Shown: in pieces, positions 1,625 through 36,055 of the stretch | Layout of the letters: each line of letters starts with the position of its first letter | Numbering within the stretch: position 1 is the stretch's first letter | Sequence record: PP400781 | Length of the DNA: 64,000 nt | Source of the DNA: Escherichia phage FL20 | Direction: 5' to 3' (one strand) | Translations under genes and position numbers: made by a program | Notes under the pieces: model-generated | What the model was told of the DNA's origin: nothing | Database searches by the model: none | The model's input: the letters and a program-made list of their open reading frames with translations, nothing else

Positions 1625-1858
1625 ATGAAACAATTTATCGAAGCAATTAAAACTCGAGATCTAACGCTGATCGAAAAAGAATTTGATAAGATCATGGAGG
1701 CTAAAAAAGCCCAGATCATAGAATCCCAGCGTGTCGAAATCGCATCCAGTATCATGATCGAAGGTGAAGAAGAAAAAGACCGCGATGATGAAGATATGGA
1801 AGATGAGGACGACGAAGATCACAAAGACGATAAAAAAGACAAAGAAGACGACGAATAA
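1625..1858 (+). CDS. 67: prohead core protein, acidic C-terminus
   Basis: 77 aa, D/E-rich tail; position between 20 and 68 as in T4. Confidence 0.65.
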   Translation: MKQFIEAIKTRDLTLIEKEFDKIMEAKKAQIIESQRVEIASSIMIEGEEEKDRDDEDMEDEDDEDHKDDKKDKEDDE

Positions 1859-1870
1859 TAGGAAGCCAAC

Positions 1871-2278
1871 ATGATTAAAGATTTTACTCCTAAAGCTGAC
1901 TTAGAAACTTTTCTGCCGGAAGCACAGGAAAAATTGGACATGTTGGCTATGTTTGAGTCAGAAGAACTATTGAAAATCGTTGAAGGTATCTCCGAGGATG
2001 AGCCGGAACTGGCGGTAGCAATGCTGTCTATCATCGACGGAATTACTGTAAATGAAGCAATGGTTAAACATGTAAACGCACGCGGGGAAGTTGCACGTAA
2101 GAAAGATCGCAAAACCCGTGAGCGTAATGCTTACATGACTACTGGCCTAAGCAAAGCTAAACGCCGTCAAATTGCCCGTCGTGCTGCAAAAACCAAACGT
2201 GCAAATCCATCTATCGAACGTCATGCGGAACGTAAGCGCAAAAAAGCAATGCGTAAACGTAAGGCGTTAGGATTATAA
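1871..2278 (+). CDS. 68: prohead core protein
   Basis: 135 aa, basic C-terminus; synteny 67-68-21. Confidence 0.65.
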   Translation: MIKDFTPKADLETFLPEAQEKLDMLAMFESEELLKIVEGISEDEPELAVAMLSIIDGITVNEAMVKHVNARGEVARKKDRKTRERNAYMTTGLSKAKRRQIARRAAKTKRANPSIERHAERKRKKAMRKRKALGL

Positions 2279-2289
2279 CAGGAAACAAC

Positions 2290-2985
2290 ATGGAAAAGAA
2301 CGAATTACTGATCGAACAATGGGGCGTTCCTTGTGCTCGCGGTAGTTCGTCATTGCTTGAATCATTTGATGATAAGGCTACAGGAAATCTCTATATTCAA
2401 GGGATTTTCCTGCAAGCCGAAACGGTAAACCGCAATAAACGCTGGTATCCTCGCAGTGTTCTAGAAAATGCGGTTACTAAATACATACATGAACAAGTTG
2501 AGACACATCAAGCTCTAGGCGAACTTAATCACCCAGCAAGAGCAATGCCAGATCCATCCAATGCTTGCATCATAATTGAAAAATTATGGTGGGAAGGTAA
2601 TAACGTGATGGGTAAAGCCCGTGTTATTGAAGGGGATAAAGGCGCAGGTGATAAACTTGCTGCACTGATTCGCGCTGGCTGGATTCCTGGCGTTTCCTCC
2701 CGTGGGTTGGGTCGGTTGAAAGACTCTGGTCGCGGATACAATATTGTACAGGAAGGTTTTGTGTTGACGGTTGGTGTTGATGTTGTATGGGGTCCGAGCG
2801 CACCAGATGCGTGGGTAACTCCGGTGGTTGAGTCAACGGATAGCGATTCTAGCGCGTCAGACGCACCAGAAAGCGATAAAACCGAAAAGGTGACTAACCC
2901 TACAGCCTCACAACAAAACATCGTAGAATCGAATAATAGCGCGTTTATGGCGCTCGCAGAAGCGTTATCTAAACGCTATAAATAA
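2290..2985 (+). CDS. 21: prohead core scaffold protein and protease
   Basis: 231 aa; LGELNHP, GDKLAALIRAGWIPGVSSRGLG, WGPSAPDAWVTP match T4 gp21 as recalled. Confidence 0.9.
   Translation: MEKNELLIEQWGVPCARGSSSLLESFDDKATGNLYIQGIFLQAETVNRNKRWYPRSVLENAVTKYIHEQVETHQALGELNHPARAMPDPSNACIIIEKLWWEGNNVMGKARVIEGDKGAGDKLAALIRAGWIPGVSSRGLGRLKDSGRGYNIVQEGFVLTVGVDVVWGPSAPDAWVTPVVESTDSDSSASDAPESDKTEKVTNPTASQQNIVESNNSAFMALAEALSKRYK
2977..2984 (+). promoter_or_regulatory. T4-type late promoter TATAAATA (gene 22)
   Basis: Exact TATAAATA 33 nt upstream of gene 22 start, overlapping last codons of gene 21. Confidence 0.6.
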
Positions 2986-3016
2986 TAACGTCGTTATCAA
3001 CAAGAAGGTTATAACC

Positions 3017-3811
3017 ATGCTTAAAGAAATGCTGCTCGAAGAAGCAAAACAGATCACCGTAGACGTTGCTCTCGATGACCTGTTTGAATCCGTCGAACTG
3101 TCGCCGGAAGTAAAAGAAAATTTTGGTACTATCTACGCTCAGGCGGTAAAAGCTAATGCTGTTGCTCTGGCAGAAAGCCACATTGAAAAAATCGCCGCTA
3201 AAGCCGATGAACTGGTAGAATCAAAGGTCGAAGAAGCACGCACCGAGATTGAAACCAAACTGTACGAAGATGCAGATAAATTCCTGAATCACTTAGGCGC
3301 TAAATGGCTGGCAGAAAATAAAGAAGCCGTCACCCGTAATATTAAAGCGGATCTGTGCGAATCCCTGATTGGTTCTCTGAAAGATGTTTTCGTTACTCAC
3401 AATGTTGTAGTACCGGAAGAATCTGTAGACGTTGTTGCTGAACTTGACGAAGCACTCAAAGAAGAAAAAGAAAAAACCTCTGAACTCTTTGATGCCAAAC
3501 TGCAACTTGAAAGCGAAATTCGTGGCATGAAGCGCGAACAAGCGATCAATGAAAGCACTCGTGATCTTTCCGATACTCAGAAAGAAAAAGTAACCGCGCT
3601 GATTGAAGGTCTGGAATATAGCGAAACTTTCGATAAGAAATTAACTGCAATTGTCGAAATGGTTGCTAAGAAAGAAGACAAACCAGCGAAGATTGAAGAA
3701 TCACTAAATACTGATGCCGACAAGCTGAATGTTATTGCAGAAGCTGTCGAAGAATCAGAGAAAAAGGCAACTGTAGATTCCGGCGTATCCCGCTACCTGA
3801 ATTTCATCTAA
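3017..3811 (+). CDS. 22: prohead core scaffold protein
   Basis: 264 aa, acidic and helical, synteny 21-22-23. Confidence 0.85.
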   Translation: MLKEMLLEEAKQITVDVALDDLFESVELSPEVKENFGTIYAQAVKANAVALAESHIEKIAAKADELVESKVEEARTEIETKLYEDADKFLNHLGAKWLAENKEAVTRNIKADLCESLIGSLKDVFVTHNVVVPEESVDVVAELDEALKEEKEKTSELFDAKLQLESEIRGMKREQAINESTRDLSDTQKEKVTALIEGLEYSETFDKKLTAIVEMVAKKEDKPAKIEESLNTDADKLNVIAEAVEESEKKATVDSGVSRYLNFI

Positions 3812-3870: not shown

Positions 3871-5469
3871 ATGAAAACTACCAAAGAACTGATGGAAAAA
3901 TGGTCCCCGCTGCTGGAGAACGAAAAACTGCCGGAAATCGCAACTGCGTCTAAGCAGAAACTGGTTGCTAAAATTCTGGAATCTCAGGAAGCGGATTTTG
4001 CTGTAGACCCGATCTATAAGGATGAAAAAGTTGTTGAAGCATTCGGTGGCTTTATCGCAGAAGCCGAAGTTGCTGGCGACCACGGTTATGACGCATCTCA
4101 GATCGCGGCTGGTCAGACTACTGGTGCAATCACTAACGTAGGTCCGGCTGTTATCGGTATGGTTCGCCGTGCTATTCCTAACCTGATCGCATTTGATATT
4201 TGTGGCGTTCAGCCGATGAGCACTCCGACTAGCCAGATCTTTGCAATCCGTTCTGTATACGGTCCAGATCCACTGGCAGGTGGCAATGCTCAGAATGTTC
4301 GTGAAGCATTCCATCCGATGTATGCGCCAGATGCTTTCCATAGCTCTCTTGCTGCTAAAGGTGCATCTGTAGGTTCTCCGACTGGGACTCCGTTTGCTAA
4401 ACTAACTATCAATACTCAGATTGAAGCAGGTGATATTGTACACCACACCTTCGCAGAAACTGGCATTGCATATCTGCAAAACGTTACCGCTGGCGCAGTA
4501 ACCCCGGCCAAATCTGGCAGCGAGTCCGAAGATGAAGTTGTCATGAAGCTGATGGAAGAAGGTAAACTGGCTGAAATCGCTTTCGGTATGGCGACTTCCA
4601 TTGCCGAAATTCAGGAAGGCTTTAACGGTTCCAGCAATAACCCGTGGGCTGAAATGTCAATGCGTATTGACAAACAGGTTGTTGAAGCGAAATCTCGCCA
4701 ACTGAAAGCCCGTTACTCTATCGAAGTTGCGCAGGATCTGCGTGCTGTACACGGTATGGATGCTGACGCTGAACTGAATGCTATCCTGGCTAACGAAGTT
4801 CTGCTGGAAATCAACCGTGAAATCGTTGACGTGATCAACTTTACCGCTCAGGTTGGTAAGACTGGTATGACTCAGACCGTTGGTTCTAAAGCTGGTGTAT
4901 TTGACCTGCAAGACCCGATCGATACTCGCGGTGCTCGTTGGGCTGGTGAATCCTTCAAATCTCTGATCTACCAGATCGACAAAGAAGCTGCTGAAATCGC
5001 TCGTCAGACTGGTCGCGGTGCTGGTAACTTTGTTATCGCTTCCCGTAACGTTGTAAACATTCTGGCTTCTGCTGATCAGGGTATCAGTCTTGCTATGCAG
5101 GGTGCTGCAAAAGGTCTGAACACCGACACCACTAAAGCTGTTTTCGCTGGTGTTCTGGCTGGTAAGTACAAAGTGTTCATCGACCAGTATGCTCGTCAAG
5201 ACTACTTCACCGTAGGTTACAAAGGCGACAACGAAATGGATGCTGGTATCTACTATGCTCCGTATGTTGCTCTGACTCCGCTGCGTGCAACTGACCCGCA
5301 GTCTTTCCACCCGGTTCTGGGCTTCAAGACTCGCTATGGCATCGGCATTAACCCGTTTGCAGACAGCAAATCCCAGGCACCGTCCGCTCGCATCACCTCC
5401 GGTATGTTGAGCAAAGACAGCGTAGGTAAAAACGCATACTTCCGTCGTGTATGGGTTAAGGGTTGCTAA
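3871..5469 (+). CDS. 23: major capsid protein
   Basis: 532 aa; strongly biased codon usage; typical gp23 sequence and position. Confidence 0.95.
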   Translation: MKTTKELMEKWSPLLENEKLPEIATASKQKLVAKILESQEADFAVDPIYKDEKVVEAFGGFIAEAEVAGDHGYDASQIAAGQTTGAITNVGPAVIGMVRRAIPNLIAFDICGVQPMSTPTSQIFAIRSVYGPDPLAGGNAQNVREAFHPMYAPDAFHSSLAAKGASVGSPTGTPFAKLTINTQIEAGDIVHHTFAETGIAYLQNVTAGAVTPAKSGSESEDEVVMKLMEEGKLAEIAFGMATSIAEIQEGFNGSSNNPWAEMSMRIDKQVVEAKSRQLKARYSIEVAQDLRAVHGMDADAELNAILANEVLLEINREIVDVINFTAQVGKTGMTQTVGSKAGVFDLQDPIDTRGARWAGESFKSLIYQIDKEAAEIARQTGRGAGNFVIASRNVVNILASADQGISLAMQGAAKGLNTDTTKAVFAGVLAGKYKVFIDQYARQDYFTVGYKGDNEMDAGIYYAPYVALTPLRATDPQSFHPVLGFKTRYGIGINPFADSKSQAPSARITSGMLSKDSVGKNAYFRRVWVKGC

Positions 5470-5553
5470 TATAAGCCAATTCCTGAAAACTCCGGTCGGG
5501 TGCAATACCCGACTTATCATAAACCTTATGACAGTGTAAAGTGTTAATTCCAA

Positions 5554-5584
5554 AGGGAAGACTCGAAAGGGTCTTCCCTTTTTG
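5554..5584 (+). terminator. rho-independent terminator after gene 23
   Basis: AGGGAAGAC-tcgaa-GTCTTCCCT hairpin followed by TTTTT. Confidence 0.8.
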
Positions 5585-5599
5585 CGTATTATAACCAGT

Positions 5600-5607
5600 T
5601 ATAAATA
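5600..5607 (+). promoter_or_regulatory. T4-type late promoter TATAAATA
   Basis: Exact TATAAATA just downstream of the gene 23 terminator. Confidence 0.45.
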
Positions 5608-5968
5608 AGGTTGCAAGCCTATATTCTATTGGGAGCGAAAATAGATACACACAACAAAGACAGGAAGATGCAGAACATCGGTGGGTTGCTAGCCTAAATC
5701 CGGTGGCTATGATATGTGATTGATTTTGATGCTGGATTTATTAAAACACAACAAACAATTCCACCAATTTTCGTAGTAACTGCATGGCAAAGGGACCAAT
5801 GAATGAAATGAGCGTTCATGTTGATATTGGGTCGGATAGATTTGGTAGATATACAGATCTGGTGTATGCCGACCTTGTTATGACATTCCAGTGTGACGCT
5901 AGCGGTAATTTTTGGTTTTGGTACGCTGTTCCCCGAATTAACCCAAAATTCTCCATAAGGAGGAATGC

Positions 5969-6121
5969 ATGAGTAAGAAAGAAAACAGCTATGTTATGAC
6001 TCGTAAGGAATACAACGAATTGATGTTAGCATTAGCTTATGCAATTATTCGTTCTGATCATGCAATTAATCTGGTAAACAAAGTTAACCGTAGCGTTGAT
6101 AATGTTTCTAGGAAGAAGTAA
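5969..6121 (+). CDS. hypothetical small protein (50 aa)
   Basis: ORF below track cutoff; strong SD AAGGAGG 5 nt upstream of ATG; sits in 23-24 intergenic region where T4 has segD. Confidence 0.4.
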   Translation: MSKKENSYVMTRKEYNELMLALAYAIIRSDHAINLVNKVNRSVDNVSRKK

Positions 6122-6160
6122 GTTTATTTTTGGAATCCTTTGGATTCCTTTTTCTTTTTG

Positions 6161-6168
6161 TATAAATA
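6161..6168 (+). promoter_or_regulatory. T4-type late promoter TATAAATA (gene 24)
   Basis: Exact TATAAATA 38 nt upstream of proposed gene 24 start. Confidence 0.65.
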
Positions 6169-6205
6169 TGATATATCCATTAAGGCAAATACAGGATTCA
6201 TAAAC

Positions 6206-7447
6206 ATGACTCATATTTTTACTGAACTGTTGCGGGAATCTACTTCCTCAGTAGCTAACCAGACAGCGCGACCGCAACTATTATCATTAACTCGCGCGGT
6301 AAACAACCTGATTTTCTCTGATCTGGTAGCAATCCAGCCAACGGATCAACCAGTATCTGCATTGTACGGCCTACGTTATCTTAATCATGATGGTCAGATG
6401 ACTTTCCGAACTGCTGCAACCTACGGTGGCGCGGTTGGTGATCGCACAGAGATTGAAGAGTTTTCAAAAGAAAAATCTTATGACGAAGGCGCACTATTCA
6501 AATCAGGCGATGTTGTATACGAAGTTGTGACCGCTGGTACAGTCGGTGAAGATGCCGCAACTCCAGAAGCTGCGATCTTTAAAGGCGTAATGACAAACAA
6601 AATTCGTTTCTATAGCGATTGTGCATCGGTAGAATACTTTGAAGATAAAAACACCGAAATTGCGTCTACCTCTATGCAGTTTGACAAGTGGCAAGTTAAT
6701 GTAGGTTCTCGTAAACTGAAAACCTCATTCACGACCGAATTGATGCAGGATCTTGAGGCAAGCCAAATCAACTCTGAAAACTCTGTAATTGATCTTCTGG
6801 CGACTGTTGCTTCCGAAGAGATCAACAAAGATATTATTCAGAAGTTGATCACTGTATCATCTCGCTATAAAATTAAAGGGATCACCCCTGATGGCGTACT
6901 TTCTCTCGTTAGCGTTCAGGATGCACCAACACAAGCGCGTGAACTTTACCGCTACGCGTGCGAGATGAGCAATCAAATGTTGCGGACTTCCTCCTTTGCT
7001 GGTACATACGTTTTGGCGTCTTCTCGCGTGGTTGGCCTCCTGCAATCATCCGGTTGGATGGAAGAAACCGACAATGCTCTAAGCGAAGGTCGTCTACGTT
7101 GCGGTCTGGAAGTGTACGCAGACACGACAACACCTTTCGATTATATGCTCGTTGGTTGTAAGCACATGATCGGTGATATGGAGAGTGTAGGTTCTCTGTT
7201 CTACTCCCCATATACAGAAGCCGACGGCGCTGGCGCGTATAAGAGCGTAATTGACCCTAATAGCTTCCAGCATCATGTAGCTATTATGAATCGTTATTCA
7301 CTATCTGTCAACCCATACACATCAAAAGTTGATCAGGAAGAACACCAGGTCATCAAGGGTGACGATTGGGGTAAAATGGCTGGACGTTCAGAAATGTCCT
7401 ACATTTTAGGAATCGAACTGCCACCGCTTGAGATTGACAACGCTTAA
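6206..7447 (+). CDS. 24: capsid vertex protein
   Basis: Start moved to ATG at 6206 (MTHIF, AGGA upstream, downstream of late promoter); gp23 paralog by position. Confidence 0.85.
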   Translation: MTHIFTELLRESTSSVANQTARPQLLSLTRAVNNLIFSDLVAIQPTDQPVSALYGLRYLNHDGQMTFRTAATYGGAVGDRTEIEEFSKEKSYDEGALFKSGDVVYEVVTAGTVGEDAATPEAAIFKGVMTNKIRFYSDCASVEYFEDKNTEIASTSMQFDKWQVNVGSRKLKTSFTTELMQDLEASQINSENSVIDLLATVASEEINKDIIQKLITVSSRYKIKGITPDGVLSLVSVQDAPTQARELYRYACEMSNQMLRTSSFAGTYVLASSRVVGLLQSSGWMEETDNALSEGRLRCGLEVYADTTTPFDYMLVGCKHMIGDMESVGSLFYSPYTEADGAGAYKSVIDPNSFQHHVAIMNRYSLSVNPYTSKVDQEEHQVIKGDDWGKMAGRSEMSYILGIELPPLEIDNA

Positions 7448-8035
7448 CTAAATATCTAACCAAGACAAGTCAGATCCGCCCAAGATTTTTTCGACGGCGG
7501 ATCTATTTTCTTGATGATATAAGTTAAAACATGGTATCCCATGTCTACGGGCAACATAAACAGCAATTCGAGTTCCTCCCGAAACGATTCCATTAACTTC
7601 TTTCGCCCAAAATAACACACAATCTACAGGATCATCAAGTGTCTCACCTAAAACTTGAGCAACATTTCTAGAAAACAGATTTTGCATGTATAACGGTATA
7701 GAACGAGGATTATCATAAACTTGTTCTAATTCATCCATCGCCAGATTTTTTTGTTCTAAGGTTTGCCATGCAATCACATCATGACCGTTATGCTTGTGGT
7801 CATAAAACTTCCAATTTGGAATGAAAATTTTTCTATAATCTGGATCGTAATATTTCATGAAAGCATTGTCCATACCGTAAGCCCCTCCAGAATGCGCTAC
7901 AACGCGATTTTCTGACAATACCCTCCCAATGGTACTAGCCATTATCAAAATGTCGCTAGGCGCTTTTCTAGAGCCTATTAAAGCACATCTACGAAGTGGT
8001 TTTACTCCAAATAGATCTTGTAACTGGTCAAACAT
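7448..8035 (-). CDS. DprA/Smf-like Rossmann (SLOG superfamily) protein
   Basis: 195 aa; ALIGSRKAP and AHSGGAYGMD resemble DprA GSR and SGxAxGxD motifs; C-terminal SGGTRIAVYVARRHGIPCF. Confidence 0.55.
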   Translation of the reverse strand: MFDQLQDLFGVKPLRRCALIGSRKAPSDILIMASTIGRVLSENRVVAHSGGAYGMDNAFMKYYDPDYRKIFIPNWKFYDHKHNGHDVIAWQTLEQKNLAMDELEQVYDNPRSIPLYMQNLFSRNVAQVLGETLDDPVDCVLFWAKEVNGIVSGGTRIAVYVARRHGIPCFNLYHQENRSAVEKILGGSDLSWLDI

Positions 8036-8188
8036 AATATTTCCTCCATAGAAAGCAATATCATACTACAAGTTAATAACAAATACAAGTATCCGCGTAG
8101 CGGAAGCGAGCACAGCGAGCAATAAAAACACTTCCAGTAATTGATTAATAAATGTTCGAAACAAATTTTTATTATTCTATAAGATAAG

Positions 8189-8214
8189 TCTTCGTTTTGA
8201 TCATAATTTAATCA
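8189..8214. repeat. 26-bp direct repeat, copy 1
   Basis: TCTTCGTTTTGATCATAATTTAATCA, identical at 8338-8363. Confidence 0.8.
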
Positions 8215-8337
8215 CACATGTAAAAACTACACAAAAGGATATCGCTTCGCGAACTCCTACGGAGTATAACATTTGTGTTACAATATGTAGTGATTAATAA
8301 TTAACCAAAGATACATTTTCTATGTTCTAAAGATCTT

Positions 8338-8363
8338 TCTTCGTTTTGATCATAATTTAATCA
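8338..8363. repeat. 26-bp direct repeat, copy 2
   Basis: Identical to 8189-8214, 149 bp apart in AT-rich non-coding region. Confidence 0.8.
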
Positions 8364-8416
8364 AACAGTATTAATATTGTGCACATGTAAACTAAAATTA
8401 TGTTAATAACATATAC

Positions 8417-8441
8417 AAAAAAGCCGCCCCGAAGGACGGCT
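8417..8441 (-). terminator. rho-independent terminator (minus strand)
   Basis: Minus-strand hairpin AGCCGTCC-TTCG-GGGCGGCT followed by U-run; just after stop of 8450..8887. Confidence 0.7.
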
Positions 8442-8449
8442 AATGTTAA

Positions 8450-8887
8450 TTATTTGTTGATAACGATCTGATTTCGGCGAATGGTAACATTACTCTTAGA
8501 GATGATCAGATCATCCGGCACTACGTTAGTTTTGTATGGTTGGAAGCGAACAAGCATCTGATTGCGTTTAGACCCTTCCTTAATCTTGATTTCCATCTGG
8601 ATATTGTTGCCTACGTGAGCAACCGCAATTTCACCTTTATTCTCATAGACCCACTTGCTGGTAACGTCTCCAGCAAAAGCCTTAATAACTTGCAATGCTT
8701 CGTCGTATGCGGTAGAGCTGTGAACTTTCAGAAGGCCAGCCGTAGAAAGACGGGAGCAGGTGATCGCCGGAGATTGCCAAACATCAACATTAATTTGCTC
8801 AATCAGAGTAACACCGCCCTGATCAACTGCTTTGAATGCTTCGAACATTGCCTTTTTCATTGCTACGTGGTTTTTACGGAATTTCAT
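8450..8887 (-). CDS. hypothetical protein (145 aa)
   Basis: Intact ORF between gene 24 and hoc; own terminator; no recognisable motif. Confidence 0.5.
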   Translation of the reverse strand: MKFRKNHVAMKKAMFEAFKAVDQGGVTLIEQINVDVWQSPAITCSRLSTAGLLKVHSSTAYDEALQVIKAFAGDVTSKWVYENKGEIAVAHVGNNIQMEIKIKEGSKRNQMLVRFQPYKTNVVPDDLIISKSNVTIRRNQIVINK

Positions 8888-8933
8888 AATTAGTCACCTC
8901 TATTGATTAGTTATTCAGAATATTAATTACAAA

Positions 8934-9209
8934 TCAGGACATTGCCCGTTTGAATGCGTCCATTATAACAGTGTTATTTGGCATGTCAACACGTTTTTGA
9001 ACTTTATTTTTAAATTTTTTGTTGATGTGGTGTTTACGATAAACAACCTTTTCACGGTTGGCGTAAGCCTCTCGTGCATCTTTTACCATCAACCATGCCT
9101 TAGCCGCATCTTGTCCGCTGATCCCGCCAATCTTTTTAGCAATATCAACAAAATTAAGACCGTGGTCTTCGCGTAGCATGTAAACCATTAACGCTGTTTT
9201 CTTGTCCAT
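8934..9209 (-). CDS. hypothetical protein, possible HTH
   Basis: Start placed at internal Met (MDKKTALMV) coupled to stop of upstream ORF; the track ORF extends to 9317. Confidence 0.4.
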   Translation of the reverse strand: MDKKTALMVYMLREDHGLNFVDIAKKIGGISGQDAAKAWLMVKDAREAYANREKVVYRKHHINKKFKNKVQKRVDMPNNTVIMDAFKRAMS

Positions 9210-9406
9210 CACTTCGCCCCATTGACGATTAACAGGATAGTGATCAGCACCGGAAACTGGATCATGATAGTGCCAATAAACCGGATAAACGCATTTTCTG
9301 ACTTCCACACATGACATGCGACTAGCTGATATACCATTGTTGCCACCAAAGCCAGAAAATACATCTCGATTGGTGTTTCTTTGATCAATCGTACAATCTC
9401 ATTCAT
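9209..9406 (-). CDS. small hydrophobic membrane protein (65 aa)
   Basis: Two hydrophobic segments; downstream of sigma70-type promoter at 9533-9560. Confidence 0.4.
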   Translation of the reverse strand: MNEIVRLIKETPIEMYFLALVATMVYQLVACHVWKSENAFIRFIGTIMIQFPVLITILLIVNGAK

Positions 9407-9532
9407 ACTTCACCTCATACATTCATAAACACAACAACGAATAATACAGTAACAGTTATCAACGCCATTTTCAACCCCACATTCATAATATTTTCTTCGC
9501 CTCACTATGACAGTAGCATGTCGATGCGTGCC

Positions 9533-9560
9533 ATTATAGGCATCTAAATCGCTCTGTCAA
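9533..9560 (-). promoter_or_regulatory. sigma70-type early promoter (minus strand)
   Basis: Minus strand reads TTGACA - 16 nt - TATAAT; lies between hoc terminator and 9406 ORF. Confidence 0.55.
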
Positions 9561-9570
9561 GCACAAAAAC

Positions 9571-9596
9571 AAAAAAAGCCACCCCGAAGGATGGCT
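9571..9596 (-). terminator. rho-independent terminator after hoc
   Basis: Minus-strand hairpin AGCCATCC-TTCG-GGGTGGCT followed by 7 U. Confidence 0.75.
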
Positions 9597-9607
9597 GATA
9601 GATTTCA

Positions 9608-10822
9608 TTAAGCAGGATGCGTTTCACGAATGCGTAGAACTCGCTCTAACGTCTCTCGGTCCAGTTTATGTAACTCTTTGGACTGATACATGAAACCATT
9701 GCGAGATTCCATGCAAGTGCAATCACTATATTTTTCTTCCGCTGCCGCGATTGTCTCCAGATCTTTGGCGTACTTGCTGGTAGAATAAACTTCTCGGTCA
9801 CGCCACTCTAACCCAGCCTCATTGAATTTAACAATCTCGTCAAATACCCACCATCCAATGTAGATAAATGAAGTTTTGCGCCACGGGATCGGGTGTACGT
9901 AACGAAACATTTTAACAACTTCCATTGAACATTTTCTACTTGTACTTGTTGCAACTTCTACTGTTTCATCTTCGATCTGTTGATATAGTTTAGCAACACA
10001 CCAGAATTTGGCTGTGTCATCGTAAGTAGCACTCTCTTTGAACAGATGACCGTCTGGAGTGATAGAAAATCCTTCCAGTGCTTCGCCAACCTCACTACCG
10101 ATCAGAGTCGGTGGTATTTGCCCTTCGCGCTGCAAATACCAGTTATATTTGATCGTCAAATTAGGCATACCGCTAGAATCGCCTACAATGTTCTCTGACA
10201 CAACATAATTAAGTAAGATCTCATTACCTAGTGCCACGGTCTTTGATTCCACCACATCCTGATCTACGTTCATTGTTGCCAGCATGATTTTAGTCGATGC
10301 GCTATTGGCTGAATTTTCCGACTCACCCCACACTTTTACAGTATACACGCCGTTTTTATCTGCTGTAAATTCTTTGATTGTAATATTCTGTTTTGTGTCT
10401 ATAACTTCTTCGCCCTTACTCCAACTATAATGTAGTTCATAGTCGTCTGCTGGAGTCTTCCCACCAGAAAATTTTACTGTTGCATGTAATTCTACGTCTT
10501 TTTGTGATGATACGTAGAAATGCGGCGGTTCGGTGATATTTACGATTAATTCCGCTTCTTCCATGAGGAAAACTTCAGATTCTACTGATTCCATCGTATC
10601 GGTATCCTGTACCGTTACTTTATAGCTACCCGCATTTTCACTTGTTGCACCTACTACAGATAGCGTAGCTGTGCTATTTTCATGTGGTTGGTCGTCTTTT
10701 GTCCATGTATATGTCAAATTGCTGGGTAATGGTTCGTCACCCGCTACAGTCGCCGTTAAGGTGAAACCATCTCCAGCAAGAAAACATCTTTTGTCAGATT
10801 TAATTGATACTGTGAAAGTCAT
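9608..10822 (-). CDS. hoc: outer capsid decoration protein Hoc (Ig-like domains)
   Basis: 404 aa; repeated beta-rich Ig-like segments (GSYKVTVQ, GVYTVKVW); position matches T4 hoc. Confidence 0.75.
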   Translation of the reverse strand: MTFTVSIKSDKRCFLAGDGFTLTATVAGDEPLPSNLTYTWTKDDQPHENSTATLSVVGATSENAGSYKVTVQDTDTMESVESEVFLMEEAELIVNITEPPHFYVSSQKDVELHATVKFSGGKTPADDYELHYSWSKGEEVIDTKQNITIKEFTADKNGVYTVKVWGESENSANSASTKIMLATMNVDQDVVESKTVALGNEILLNYVVSENIVGDSSGMPNLTIKYNWYLQREGQIPPTLIGSEVGEALEGFSITPDGHLFKESATYDDTAKFWCVAKLYQQIEDETVEVATSTSRKCSMEVVKMFRYVHPIPWRKTSFIYIGWWVFDEIVKFNEAGLEWRDREVYSTSKYAKDLETIAAAEEKYSDCTCMESRNGFMYQSKELHKLDRETLERVLRIRETHPA

Positions 10823-10888
10823 ATAAAGCCACTCCCATAGAAAATCCGAATTTAATTAATTGAAATAGTTGATTGCCATCAACCAGAT

Positions 10889-10906
10889 AACCATTGCGAG
10901 ATTCCA
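10889..10906. repeat. 18-nt duplicate of hoc 3' sequence
   Basis: AACCATTGCGAGATTCCA identical to 9694-9711 inside hoc; encodes ESRNG in both. Confidence 0.6.
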
Positions 10907-33946: not shown

Positions 33947-35441
33947 CGAATACCTCTTTTACTGTATTTGCAGTGGTCTTGTCGTAGCGAATACGTTTGA
34001 TGATTGGGAGAAATAAAGAGAACTCCGGTTCATCTTCTTTACGTGATTTGCTGCGGATATACCCGTTGCATGTCATCTCAATGACTTTTCCAATCAGGTT
34101 ATGACGGTCAGACCATAACATTTCTCTGTCAAGTTCATTTCGACGGTCAAACGGAATCACACGTTCAATACCATCATCGCCTTTTTCGGTTGTGGTGTCG
34201 GTCAATCCCGATCCGGTGTTAGTCATCATTCGTCCGCACGCACTACGGACAGTAAAACCTCCTACCTTATTAGGATCTTTACTATGCGGATATACATCAA
34301 CAATTTCCGCGTCGAAGTCAATCACTTCTTTAAATTTAACCTGATCTTTACTGCGACGATCTTCAAATACACCATGTAAATTTTTAAGGATAATACCTTC
34401 TAAGCCCATGTTTACATAGCGATGATATACTTCGCGAGCTTCATCGATATTGTTAACTACAGTATTTTCGATTATCTGAACACGAGGATCGTTAAGTTCT
34501 TCAACAATCTGTTTTAGTTCTTCGAATCGATCTTTATATTGCTTCGTTGCTTTCTCGTTTCCGTAATACACATCACGGTCGATAACATCCCAGACAGTGT
34601 AAACAATACATTGGGCTTCTTCTTTTGGAATAGTTCCTTTCAGTGATTTGTTGAGGATACCATTTCCGGTCTGACGGTCTGCAACAACGGATTCTTTTAC
34701 TGCTTCCGCTACTGGCGTTAATGGCATTTCCTCTTCTTCAAATATCCATGACAGAGTACCATCATAAACGCTTTCAACGAAGTTCTGCGCTGGTGTTTGC
34801 GAAAGGGTAGGCATATATACCAATTCGCCATCTAGAACAATTCCACGGCCTCGTAGACGCTCTAAAACCGCAAACAAATCATCAAGTCCCTGATAGGTAT
34901 TACCTGAGCGGGTATAGATTGCTAATGTTTCCCCGTCAATATCAGCCATACCACGAGCGCCATCGCTTTTAAGTTGTGCATACGCCGGATACTTGATATT
35001 AGCAATAGTCTTATCAGAACATGACGATGCAAGGTGACACGGTTGCTGGGGGATCAGTTTCTTCCATACCTTGTTTGCAGTGGTAGCGGAACAACCACAT
35101 TCCAGATCACGATTCAGAACCATCATTGCAACTTTAGCATCATCTTCTGACAAGCAAGTCAGAGTATCGGTAACTAGCTGTAATGCTGCGTTACCAGTTA
35201 CTTGACGCGTGGCAAGTTTATTTTTAAAGACCTGTAATGCACCGGATAAAGACAATACAGACGAATAGCGAGATGGTTTATCGTATTTCTTTACGCCAAA
35301 CGTAACCTGTTTGCAATATGCCAGATAAAAGCATTCTTTCAGTGTTTCATTGCTTGCAGATTCTTTCAGGATCTTTTCTTTCAGCGATGTTTTGTCGGTC
35401 GCTGCAAGCTGGTTAATGATATTAAGAATTGACATTTTCAC
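33939..35441 (-). CDS. 30: ATP-dependent DNA ligase
   Basis: Adenylation motif AQLKSDGARG (KxDG), C-terminal FKEVIDFDAEIV; colinear with T4 gp30 as recalled. Confidence 0.9.
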   Translation of the reverse strand: MKMSILNIINQLAATDKTSLKEKILKESASNETLKECFYLAYCKQVTFGVKKYDKPSRYSSVLSLSGALQVFKNKLATRQVTGNAALQLVTDTLTCLSEDDAKVAMMVLNRDLECGCSATTANKVWKKLIPQQPCHLASSCSDKTIANIKYPAYAQLKSDGARGMADIDGETLAIYTRSGNTYQGLDDLFAVLERLRGRGIVLDGELVYMPTLSQTPAQNFVESVYDGTLSWIFEEEEMPLTPVAEAVKESVVADRQTGNGILNKSLKGTIPKEEAQCIVYTVWDVIDRDVYYGNEKATKQYKDRFEELKQIVEELNDPRVQIIENTVVNNIDEAREVYHRYVNMGLEGIILKNLHGVFEDRRSKDQVKFKEVIDFDAEIVDVYPHSKDPNKVGGFTVRSACGRMMTNTGSGLTDTTTEKGDDGIERVIPFDRRNELDREMLWSDRHNLIGKVIEMTCNGYIRSKSRKEDEPEFSLFLPIIKRIRYDKTTANTVKEVFDV

Positions 35442-35901
35442 CTCGTTTTGTTAAACGTTCACGAATATCATTGAGGATACTACAAAATTCCGATTCAGTC
35501 AATATAGTCTTTAACGGATCAGTTCCACCTATGCTATGACGCAATTTCTTATTTCCGGTAGAGAGTAATGCTTTACAAAATTCTGGGTTATTCCGTGCCA
35601 TCGTAACAAATGCCAGATGTACCAGTCTGTAATAATGCTCACTCATTCGATGAATAGGGCGACCCTGAAAATATAACATGTGATTCTCAATCTTTTCAGT
35701 TCTTCCGGTTCTTTTTGCTTTGCCACCGTGCATCAAAAAGATTTCTCTTTGTCTCTGAGGGTTCTTAAATCTTAGCCCCTGTAAAAATCCTTCTGTGCTG
35801 TTAATATCGCAACCAAATAGACGGAATGGTCTTTTATTGAAGTTACTCAATTCACCCGATGGATAAGGTCCACCCGCATAGATATCAATTTCAGAAGTCA
35901 T
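35422..35901 (-). CDS. NADAR (YbiA-like) domain protein
   Basis: IYAGGPYPSGELSNF...STEGFLQGLRF resembles YbiA/NADAR N-terminal core; sits in the 30.x position. Confidence 0.6.
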   Translation of the reverse strand: MTSEIDIYAGGPYPSGELSNFNKRPFRLFGCDINSTEGFLQGLRFKNPQRQREIFLMHGGKAKRTGRTEKIENHMLYFQGRPIHRMSEHYYRLVHLAFVTMARNNPEFCKALLSTGNKKLRHSIGGTDPLKTILTESEFCSILNDIRERLTKRGENVNS

Positions 35902-36055
35902 TGAAACTAATCTCGCTAATCATAGAGAACGGATCATAATCGTCATGAGGAATATCGATAGTAATCGAATGAGGATTTACCCATACACCAAACTGGTCTT
36001 CTTCGGCGAATACTTCGGTATGGATTTCGTGGATGTTTACATTCATAGTTTTCAT
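35891..36055 (-). CDS. hypothetical small protein (54 aa)
   Basis: ORF below track cutoff; stop overlaps NADAR start (ATGACTTCTGA). Confidence 0.35.
   Translation of the reverse strand: MKTMNVNIHEIHTEVFAEEDQFGVWVNPHSITIDIPHDDYDPFSMISEISFNDF

Follow-up and report, generated by a model that had tools for sequence, protein, structure and literature searches.

The window analyzed here is a 64,000-nucleotide stretch of Escherichia phage FL20 (sequence record PP400781). Its positions 5500 to 10900 share 99.0% identity with Escherichia phage Delraymugoa; the window is a Krischvirus (RB49-like T4-type) genome. gp23 (3871-5469) is followed by small ORFs, by gp24 (6140-7447), and then by a gene for a 195-residue SLOG protein; late genes 23 and 24 are on one strand and the SLOG gene is on the other. 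The SLOG gene and gp24 abut, with adjacent stop codons at 7445-7447 and 7448-7450. Beyond the SLOG gene are two small genes (one DUF2774), a Hoc-like gene, inh, uvsW, and uvsY. The SLOG gene starts with the ATG at 8035-8033, read from the sequence, and the following features belong to it or lie upstream of it.

7448-8035, minus strand: SLOG-protein coding sequence, 195 aa (phrog_768; RB49 ortholog Q7Y3M6)
8043-8047, minus strand: Shine-Dalgarno GGAGG, 7 nt 5' of the ATG, by direct sequence reading
8060-8088, minus strand: candidate sigma-70-type promoter, TTGTAT-17 nt-TATGAT, weak (8/12), inferred by eye
8422-8441, minus strand: terminator-like GC-rich stem-loop with T-run from the terminator scan, ending the upstream gene (8450-8887)

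All three motif strings quoted in the sequence-only reading, which had not mentioned the minus strand, are present in the 195-residue ORF: LIGSRKAP (residues 19 to 26), HSGGAYGMD (residues 48 to 56), and SGGTRIAVYVARRHGIPCF (residues 152 to 170). They are not chance strings, as phrog_768 is matched over its full length (E = 1.4e-60; 205 bits; residues 15 to 187 on profile positions 4 to 181 of 191) and the motifs hold conserved columns of the family. Compared with three Krischvirus-type orthologs, the SLOG gene had dN/dS values of 0.13, 0.05, and 0.12 (dS ≤0.76) and is under purifying selection; the ORF is a genuine gene, conserved among RB49-type coliphages. The protein is mildly acidic (pI 6.3; family median, 8.6), and family pI was uninformative as a proxy for DNA binding.

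Annotation and distribution of the family

Both the SLOG family and its DprA-like annotation are already public. The exact protein sequence has been deposited in NCBI, and the Delraymugoa genome names the gene "DprA-like DNA recombination-mediator protein," as does RB49 protein Q7Y3M6, a member of the same 90% cluster, and phrog_768 itself. In this window, the SLOG gene is thus an already annotated accessory gene. The "recombination mediator" part of this automatic label is a poor fit to the gene neighbors and is probably misleading. A second label, found in one GenBank record that calls an ortholog a "YspA SLOG family protein," was rejected, as there was no profile match.

The phrog_768 family is very large and, among the relatives found, occurs almost solely in phage or phage-like contexts. 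Relatives were detected by tblastn in 1340 of 50,697 phage records, with hosts including Klebsiella, Pseudomonas, Escherichia, Aeromonas, Vibrio, and Acinetobacter and with phage types including T4-like, N4-like, Pakpunavirus, Phapecoctavirus, and phiKZ-like. A profile search of 1.84 billion representatives (50% identity) recovered 4315 proteins at E ≤1e-3 (2729 at E ≤1e-10), nearly all of them stand-alone proteins of 160 to 220 aa. Two peptide patterns alone recovered 510 loci from IMG/VR.

Position next to gene 24 and association with RNA ligase 2

The sequence-only reading placed the SLOG gene where T4 carries rnlB. This position holds: in Tequatrovirus RB5, gene 24 is adjoined by rnlB (24.1), followed by 24.2, 24.3, hoc, and inh, and in the window it is the SLOG gene that abuts gp24. 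The SLOG gene also adjoins or is near RNA ligase 2 (Rnl2), on the same strand, in six other T4-like lineages. Gaps between Rnl2 and SLOG ranged from -1 to 139 nt in Moonvirus, Jiaodavirus, Slopekvirus, Pseudotevenvirus, and Erwinia phage COW86c. The arrangements were as follows.

Moonvirus CF1: SLOG between rnlB and gene 24, directly 3' of rnlB
Jiaodavirus Roth68: order as in Moonvirus CF1, with the rnlB stop and SLOG start overlapping
Jiaodavirus 15882-3-3: Rnl2-SLOG gap of 6 nt
Slopekvirus (Lychee, Rpl1, Olmo) and Pseudotevenvirus IME-CF2: pair elsewhere in the genome, in the order srd-like, Rnl2, SLOG, three ORFs, NAMPT
Erwinia phage COW86c: SLOG match overlapping the Rnl2 annotation boundary
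Ceceduovirus AS-zj: Rnl2 and SLOG 3 kb apart, in equal direction

The pair keeps together even at a different genome position, as in Slopekvirus and Pseudotevenvirus, and in Slopekvirus Lychee an HNH gene is inserted within it. No Rnl2-SLOG linkage was found in the flanks examined of Lazarusvirus KARL-1 and Acajnonavirus Acj9. Krischvirus itself lacks Rnl2: a tblastn search of Delraymugoa positions 3936 to 164032 with Jiaodavirus Rnl2 gave a best E value of 0.18 (positive controls, 1e-78 to 0). The SLOG protein is therefore not strictly dependent on Rnl2. We found no mention of the Rnl2-SLOG pairing in a survey of viral NAD/ADPr systems.

Transcriptional context

The SLOG gene belongs to a run of minus-strand cassettes whose boundaries are GC-rich stem-loops and consensus sigma-70 promoters (9596-9533, 8989-8962, and, as terminator, 8441-8422). 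Cassettes with PeSL early promoters have been reported for RB49 and phi1 (PMC2839356); the cassettes here resemble these, and the stem-loop at 8422-8441 may, by analogy, be a PeSL-type boundary of the SLOG-gene cassette. The candidate promoter at 8060-8088 lies directly after a small stem-loop, and a 17-nt motif containing its candidate -35 element is found again after the upstream terminator. The promoter scan returned none scoring at least 9/12 directly upstream of the SLOG gene, and we therefore infer the timing of its expression, which would be early or middle (pre-late). An Rfam scan of positions 7300 to 9700 gave sub-threshold sRNA matches, on terminators only.

Fold and placement within the SLOG superfamily

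Two of the checks proposed in the sequence-only reading, a profile search and a structure prediction, lead to DprA. The AlphaFold2 model of the SLOG protein (pLDDT, 85; pTM, 0.85) matched 11 PDB structures at E ≤1e-3 with Foldseek, all of them DprA or ShosA (best E = 6e-6), and LOG structures appeared only at E values of 0.02 or worse. Against viral models, Foldseek recovered the protein's own family (E = 1e-12 to 1e-8), followed by YspA/DUF2493 (E of ~2e-3 to 1e-2; TM, ~0.43) and a Marseillevirus "Rossmann-fold nucleotide-binding protein" (E, ~2e-3; TM, ~0.41 to 0.42). The family profile found HpDprA among PDB sequences at E = 4e-6. The sole Pfam match of the SLOG protein was DprA PF02481 (residues 15 to 60 only), and its 22.3 bits are below the gathering threshold of 29.6 bits; with TIGR00732 (the dprA equivalog), it scored 14.4 bits, below the cutoff of 191. 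Across 137 family members, 96 matched PF02481 at E ≤0.01 (best E = 8e-7), 18 matched LDcluster4, and none matched LOG, YpsA, or YAcAr.

The fold shows the hallmarks of the SLOG superfamily: it is Rossmannoid and three-layered, the loops that follow strands 1, 2, and 4 are glycine rich or polar, and strand 3 leads into a conserved polar helix. Because of the Foldseek, profile, and Pfam results, we assign the protein to the SLOG fold and, as a distinct phage family, to the DprA clade. The DprA-like SLOG assignment of the sequence-only reading thus stands, and whichever method was used, DprA was the closest of the known families; that reading would have been given up had the best matches fallen elsewhere or had its motifs not aligned with those of DprA, and we found the best matches to be DprA and the motifs to align. 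Membership in DprA proper fails: the scores are sub-threshold, SAM and winged-helix domains are absent, and the third Arg of the DNA-binding site is not conserved.

Conserved residues of the pocket

In the family alignment (137 sequences; mean column identity, 18%), G21, G50, D56, R123, G153, G154, and T155 are invariant, and R23, P26, S49, A52, G54, P73, N124, Q127, G130, A158, A162, and N171 are conserved in at least 90% of sequences. Invariant or near-invariant positions within the quoted motifs are G21, R23, P26, S49, G50, A52, G54, D56, G153, G154, T155, A158, A162, and N171. Four segments of the gene encode the pocket.

7967-7975, minus strand: codons G21-S22-R23; loop after strand 1, corresponding to DprA GSR (HpDprA R52), with R23 in 137 of 140 sequences
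7868-7891, minus strand: codons S49-G-G-A-Y-G-M-D56; glycine-rich loop after strand 2, corresponding to DprA SGxAxGID
7655-7675, minus strand: codons F121-S-R123-N124-V-A-Q127; RN-motif helix corresponding to DprA F-x-x-R-N (probably HpDprA R143)
7562-7579, minus strand: codons G153-G154-T155-R-I-A158; loop corresponding to DprA SGS and LOG PGGxGT

For comparison with the family, E. coli Smf was used to retrieve DprA sequences of gamma-proteobacteria, and their 72 Rossmann domains were combined into a profile. The hhalign alignment covered the whole domain and was weak (E = 7e-5; probability, 34%); that with the single Smf sequence covered the N-terminal 51 columns only. The motifs correspond in the same order: GSR to GSR, SGGAxGxD to SGLAxGID (the S49-D56 loop aligns to SGLARGID of E. 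coli Smf), R123-N124 to RRN, and G153-G154-T155 to SGS. Family members have His, Phe, Tyr, or Met at position 121.

Binding of ssDNA by HpDprA and ShosA needs three arginines, R52, R143, and R170 in HpDprA numbering, whose ShosA counterparts are R139, R234, and R261, respectively (PMC12961424). HpDprA R52, the arginine of GTR/GSR, corresponds to R23 of the SLOG protein (SEQRES numbering plus 4). R143 would correspond to R123, judging from the motif, given that E. coli Smf has RRN where the SLOG protein has R123-N124. The third (R170, in SGSxxxAR) is not kept: it aligns to Y160, where only 24% of family members carry K or R. Nearby, at positions 156, 163, and 164, basic residues are common. The position of the catalytic Glu of LOG (PGGxGTxxE) is A158, Ala in 133 of 140 sequences, with the loop reading SGGTRIA; this replacement therefore favors binding over LOG-type hydrolysis. 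From its residues, the pocket is DprA-like and apparently noncatalytic in the LOG sense. The SLOG protein is a single domain of 195 aa with neither a SAM nor a winged-helix domain; in the retrieved DprAs of bacteria, PF02481 is accompanied by PF17782, PF25317, or PF21102.

Fusions and gene neighbors across the family

Several family members are fused to other domains, and all of the fusion proteins retain every family invariant. Three two-domain proteins (P0048, P0124, and P0145) are NADAR-SLOG fusions, and two proteins of ~1480 aa (P0017 and P0019) combine a phrog_768-type SLOG with a YAcAr SLOG, an LDcluster4 SLOG, and NADAR. SLOG is joined to DUF4326 in one protein (P0137) and to RecJ (DHH-DHHA1-OB) in another (P0139).

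Neighboring genes were clustered from all ORFs within 6 kb of the SLOG gene (less at contig or flank ends) at 97 loci representing 72 family groups (<70% identity), and recurrent clusters were annotated with Pfam. The resulting counts are descriptive only, because recombinase detection is insensitive and many groups may share ancestry.

PhoH: 11 of 72 groups, median distance 3.7 kb
NAMPT family: 9 of 72 groups, median 1.2 kb, strand always equal to that of SLOG
Macro: 8 of 72 groups, median 0.6 kb, same strand
dCMP deaminase: 6 of 72 groups, median 2.2 kb
ClpP-like: 6 of 72 groups, median 2.0 kb
DNA methyltransferase: 5 of 72 groups, median 4.3 kb
ThyX: 5 of 72 groups, median 2.5 kb
DUF4326: 5 of 72 groups, median 0.8 kb
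NADAR: 2 of 72 groups

By distance, Macro, DUF4326, and NAMPT are the tightest recurrent neighbors, and at least one NAD- or ADP-ribose-related neighbor (these three or NADAR) was present in 16 of the 72 groups. The order in Pakpunavirus B55 is PRPP synthase, NAMPT, Macro, and SLOG, and in Slopekvirus and Pseudotevenvirus NAMPT lies 1.3 kb downstream of SLOG. A Thg1-like (tRNA-repair) gene is two genes upstream of the SLOG gene in the phiKZ-like phage 201phi2-1. Metagenomic relatives sit in phage regions with small unannotated genes and nucleotide-metabolism genes. With this insensitive detection of recombinases, a UvsX-like neighbor was found, weakly, in one of the 72 groups and gp32 in none. 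In the window, no Macro, NADAR, DUF4326, or NAMPT gene lies beside the SLOG gene. Krischvirus encodes a homolog of gp30.3 (NADAR-related, PF08010) at window positions 35422 to 35919, for which the NADAR profile gives a weak match (E = 1.8e-5). It also has a Macro gene at another place in the genome; neither of the two adjoins the SLOG gene.

Possible functions

The reading that we favor, and hold tentatively, is that the SLOG protein is a noncatalytic binder of single-stranded nucleic acid that works with repair or de-modification enzymes. As a single-domain member of the DprA clade, it retains, in the motifs GSR, SGGAxGxD, RN, and GGT, the phosphate- and nucleotide-binding pocket with which DprA holds ssDNA. 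The ligand may be ssDNA, or possibly RNA ends or ADP-ribosylated strands. Expressed before the late genes, as its likely promoter context suggests, the protein might protect or flag strands that are damaged or modified and pass them to partner enzymes. These partners would be Rnl2 in the other T4-like phages and, wherever they are fused to SLOG or encoded next to it, Macro, NADAR, DUF4326, or RecJ. Its role would be that of an accessory repair and counterdefense factor rather than a core recombination mediator.

In favor of this reading, both sequence and structure make DprA the nearest relative, and R23 and R123 are the counterparts of two of the three ssDNA arginines. His or an aromatic residue stands two residues before R123, and the fusion partners act on nucleic acids or ADP-ribose adducts. 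The same-strand linkage to Rnl2, the Thg1-like gene in 201phi2-1, the RecJ fusion, and the location of the SLOG gene among PeSL-type (early) minus-strand cassettes are likewise consistent with nucleic acid binding. Against it are Y160 at the position of R170, the weak match to the DprA profile (34%), and the pI of 6.3. The recurrent linkage to NAMPT points to soluble NAD metabolism and is left unexplained by binding of nucleic acid, and in Krischvirus the proposed partners are not adjacent and Rnl2 is absent from the genome. In addition, the ligands that Iyer et al. (2022) predict for SLOG domains of viruses are soluble ADPr compounds (PMC9503650).

That prediction leads to the second possibility, which we consider somewhat less likely than nucleic acid binding: the SLOG protein would bind or process soluble nucleotides derived from NAD+ or ADP-ribose. 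It might be a sponge or decoy sensor for, or a cleaver of, cADPR isomers, ADPR, or ADPr-phosphates from NAD-based immunity, in joint action with phage Macro, NADAR, DUF4326, and NAMPT. The published argument, itself a prediction, starts from fusions to Macro, NADAR, and DUF4326 and holds that SLOG domains of viruses are sensors or processors of ADPr derivatives (PMC9503650). Our data add the five NADAR fusions (P0048, P0124, P0145, P0017, and P0019) and the DUF4326 fusion (P0137), and they agree with it in the close spacing of Macro, DUF4326, and NAMPT, the PRPP synthase-NAMPT-Macro-SLOG order of Pakpunavirus, the NAMPT gene downstream of SLOG in Slopekvirus and Pseudotevenvirus, and the gp30.3 homolog and Macro gene of the Krischvirus genome. 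The nearest relatives, however, are DprA and ShosA, which bind ssDNA, and not the ThsA, YpsA, or LOG branches; Pfam matches to YpsA, YAcAr, and LOG are lacking, as is the catalytic Glu of LOG. Many of the 72 groups may come from a few syntenic phage lineages, so that the neighbor counts are not independent, and none of these neighbors stands beside the SLOG gene in the window.

NADAR and Macro also act on ADP-ribosylated DNA (reportedly in Schuller et al. 2023, and in DarG), which agrees with the nucleic acid-binding reading. The fusions therefore do not discriminate between the binding of nucleic acid and that of soluble ADPr. On either of these two leading readings, the SLOG protein would be an accessory counterdefense or repair factor.

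It is unlikely that the protein is a true recombination mediator, which would bind ssDNA and load phage UvsX or host RecA as bacterial DprA does; this loader role, implied by the database name, is less supported than either of the preceding readings. DprA is the closest family, and its isolated Rossmann domain is the ssDNA-binding part; phage copies of DprA/Smf have been proposed as extra ssDNA-binding proteins in recombination (Iyer et al. 2021; PMC7824862), and uvsW and uvsY are 4 to 7 kb away, in one gene block with SLOG. This proximity is inherited T4-type synteny, however, and is also seen in T4-type phages without a SLOG gene. The protein falls short of the DprA family thresholds, the SAM and winged-helix domains are missing, Krischvirus already encodes a full set of UvsX, UvsY, UvsW, gp32, and gp46/47, and T4 recombines without a SLOG gene. 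The sequence-only reading had offered two roles, a recombination accessory alongside UvsX/UvsY and a nucleotide-binding counterdefense factor. We find no support for the former, given the phage's own UvsX, UvsY, UvsW, and gp32 and the lack of a recurrent recombinase neighbor in the 72 groups at low detection sensitivity; the latter appears to fit the fusions and neighborhoods better.

Least probable, indeed very doubtful, is a LOG- or PpnN-like phosphoribohydrolase freeing ribose-5-phosphate or bases for phage nucleotide and NAD synthesis and feeding PRPP synthase and NAMPT: R123-N124 does stand where LOG has its catalytic Arg-Lys pair (an analogy drawn from the EVADES analysis of ORF83) and NT5C, dCMP deaminase, DHFR, Tmk, dNMP kinase, ThyX, and PRPP synthase are frequent neighbors, but a nearly invariant Ala replaces the Glu of PGGxGTxxE, none of the 137 members has a Pfam LOG match, and Foldseek places LOG (E of 0.02 or worse) far behind DprA (6e-6). 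LOG-type catalysis was accordingly rejected, its catalytic Glu being missing.

Returning to the SLOG protein as a partner of repair and de-modification enzymes, a wider conjecture, which we offer as speculative and on balance rather improbable, is that the stand-alone DprA-clade SLOGs of virulent phages are a widespread counterdefense module recognizing ADP-ribose chemistry and not recombination mediators. They would either dock on ADP-ribosylated ssDNA or RNA, for reversal and repair of the damage by Macro, NADAR, DUF4326, and Rnl2, or serve as decoy sensors (sponges) of ADPr-derived immune signals. If they do bind ADP-ribosylated nucleic acid or ADPr signals, they would be a large added class of phage counterdefense factors. 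If such a module exists, the Rnl2-SLOG pair would mark a previously unrecognized nucleic acid repair pathway and provide a biological context for T4 Rnl2. To our knowledge, the in vivo role of T4-type Rnl2 is still unclear, and its recurrent pairing with SLOG could give a first clue. Follow-up is most worthwhile for the conserved pairing of Rnl2 with SLOG and for the NAD/ADPr context.

Relation to known systems

The LOG and PpnN enzymes resemble the phage protein in their SLOG fold, glycine-rich phosphate loop, and Arg on the helix after strand 3. They differ in that the catalytic Glu of PGGxGTxxE is Ala in phage SLOG, and there is no profile match between them. Sequence-profile matches are also absent for the SLOG domain of ThsA (the Thoeris 3'cADPR sensor) and for YpsA and YAcAr (DUF2493).

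DprA/Smf, exemplified by H. pylori DprA (PDB 4LJK and 4LJR), R. palustris 3MAJ, and E. coli Smf, is closer. In this comparison, the N-terminal third of the phage SLOG protein alone aligns with confidence. The phage protein is longer by ~10 residues in the stretch from RN to GGT, carries a long insert behind strand 3, and has Q127, P73, and N171 as conserved residues specific to the family. The family members found come from phages and not from competence loci.

ShosA (PDB 8ZVA), the DprA-like antitoxin of the ShosTA antiphage system, shows that a DprA-like protein can act in phage defense, via ssDNA and RecA (PMC12961424). It is host encoded, binds RecA, has a PRTase toxin as partner, and carries an additional helix as well as a SAM domain, whereas none of these traits was seen for phage SLOG.

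A phage protein offers the functional parallel: ORF83 of PhiDruSM1, the only phage "Smf/DprA" protein reported with a phenotype. PhiDruSM1 plates less well on AVAST type III (Avs3) when ORF83 is deleted, and likewise when its DNA ligase is deleted, and a later preprint (the EVADES analysis) models ORF83 as an AMP binder without the DprA dimer and RecA residues. We compared ORF83 via its published motif description, and it probably belongs to a different SLOG family: the spacing from R to T is 23 residues, versus 32 to 33 in phrog_768-type SLOGs, and ORF83 has an Asp two residues after the Thr. Its Marseillevirus-type homologs match the AlphaFold2 model only at a Foldseek E value of 2e-3 (TM, 0.41). 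A search of the Queuovirinae phage 9g gave no phrog_768-type member at E ≤10. Because of this absence and the differing motif spacing, ORF83 is taken as an analog only. It is nonetheless, like the protein described here, a small phage SLOG with R-N and G-T pocket residues, and it has a counterdefense phenotype and homologs fused to DUF4326.

Conservation of the Rnl2-SLOG pair and absence of Rnl2 in Krischvirus

In several T4-like genera (loci L008, L009, L010, L107, and L108), the gene for RNA ligase 2 (Rnl2) is followed on the same strand by the SLOG gene, and the pair is intact even at loci that have been relocated away from gene 24. Slopekvirus and Pseudotevenvirus carry it within a block that reads srd-like gene, Rnl2, SLOG, three ORFs, and NAMPT. 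A limited literature search found no description of this pairing. RNA ligase 2 was not found in positions 3936-164032 of the genome of Delraymugoa, a close Krischvirus relative (tblastn; best E = 0.18). RnlA and polynucleotide kinase are retained in Krischvirus, as is a gene in the 24-hoc interval:

8934-9317, DUF2774 gene

Near-identical copies of the SLOG protein (its database cluster) bear discordant names, including "DprA-like DNA recombination-mediator protein" and "hypothetical protein [Escherichia coli]." The copy in phage vB_EcoM_Skers is named "putative RNA ligase," which is probably a carry-over from the position of rnlB in T4. A partial member named "DNA-protecting protein DprA [Bacillus atrophaeus]" probably represents contamination.

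Transcriptional context and repeats

Two sets of elements on the minus strand resemble the early-promoter/stem-loop (PeSL) cassettes of RB49 and phi1 (PMC2839356):

9596-9533, minus strand, stem-loop terminator followed by a perfect promoter, TTGACA-16-TATAAT
8989-8962, minus strand, second perfect promoter, with extended TG

At the 3' end of the SLOG gene, the gp24 stop codon (plus strand, 7445-7447) directly abuts the SLOG stop codon (minus strand, 7448-7450). With no spacer between the two stops, late and non-late units converge, and there is no room for an intergenic terminator.

The intergenic region 5' of the SLOG gene (8036-8449) contains two direct repeats:

8181-8218 and 8330-8367, 38-nt pair, 89% identical
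8072-8088 and 8402-8418, 17-nt motif

Each 38-nt copy spans a minus-strand mini-ORF starting MIKTK, and each copy of the 17-nt motif is immediately preceded by a stem-loop (8104-8092 and 8441-8422). These repeats are possibly what is left of PeSL-type cassettes that were duplicated.

NAD/ADP-ribose-related genes and other neighbors

A NADAR-related gene adjoins the DNA ligase gene within the window:

35422-35919, minus strand, homologue of T4 gp30.3 (Pfam PF08010, E = 7e-38)

Krischvirus also has a Macro-domain gene, which lies outside the window and is annotated "phosphatase" in Delraymugoa (CDS0223). Given the presence of both genes, Krischvirus has a SLOG/NADAR-like/Macro trio, dispersed over the genome. 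In the phiKZ-like jumbo Pseudomonas phage 201phi2-1 (region 1711-3642 of locus L110), a Thg1-like tRNA-His guanylyltransferase (PF04446, E = 5e-30), another RNA-repair-type neighbor of the family, is encoded two genes upstream of the SLOG-family member gp321.

Separately, one metagenomic phage contig (L002) encodes an Acb2/Tad1-hairpin sponge (PF24729; 6771-7067) 1.2 kb downstream of its SLOG gene; both belong to one series of small genes on the same strand.

SLOG domains in giant fusion proteins

Two metagenomic family representatives of about 1480 aa, P0017 and P0019, each contain a NADAR domain at the C terminus and three different SLOG domains: one of the phrog_768-type family, one YAcAr, and one LDcluster4. 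Long segments of both proteins have no Pfam match. P0017 and P0019 are reminiscent of the polyvalent proteins that phages and conjugative elements encode.
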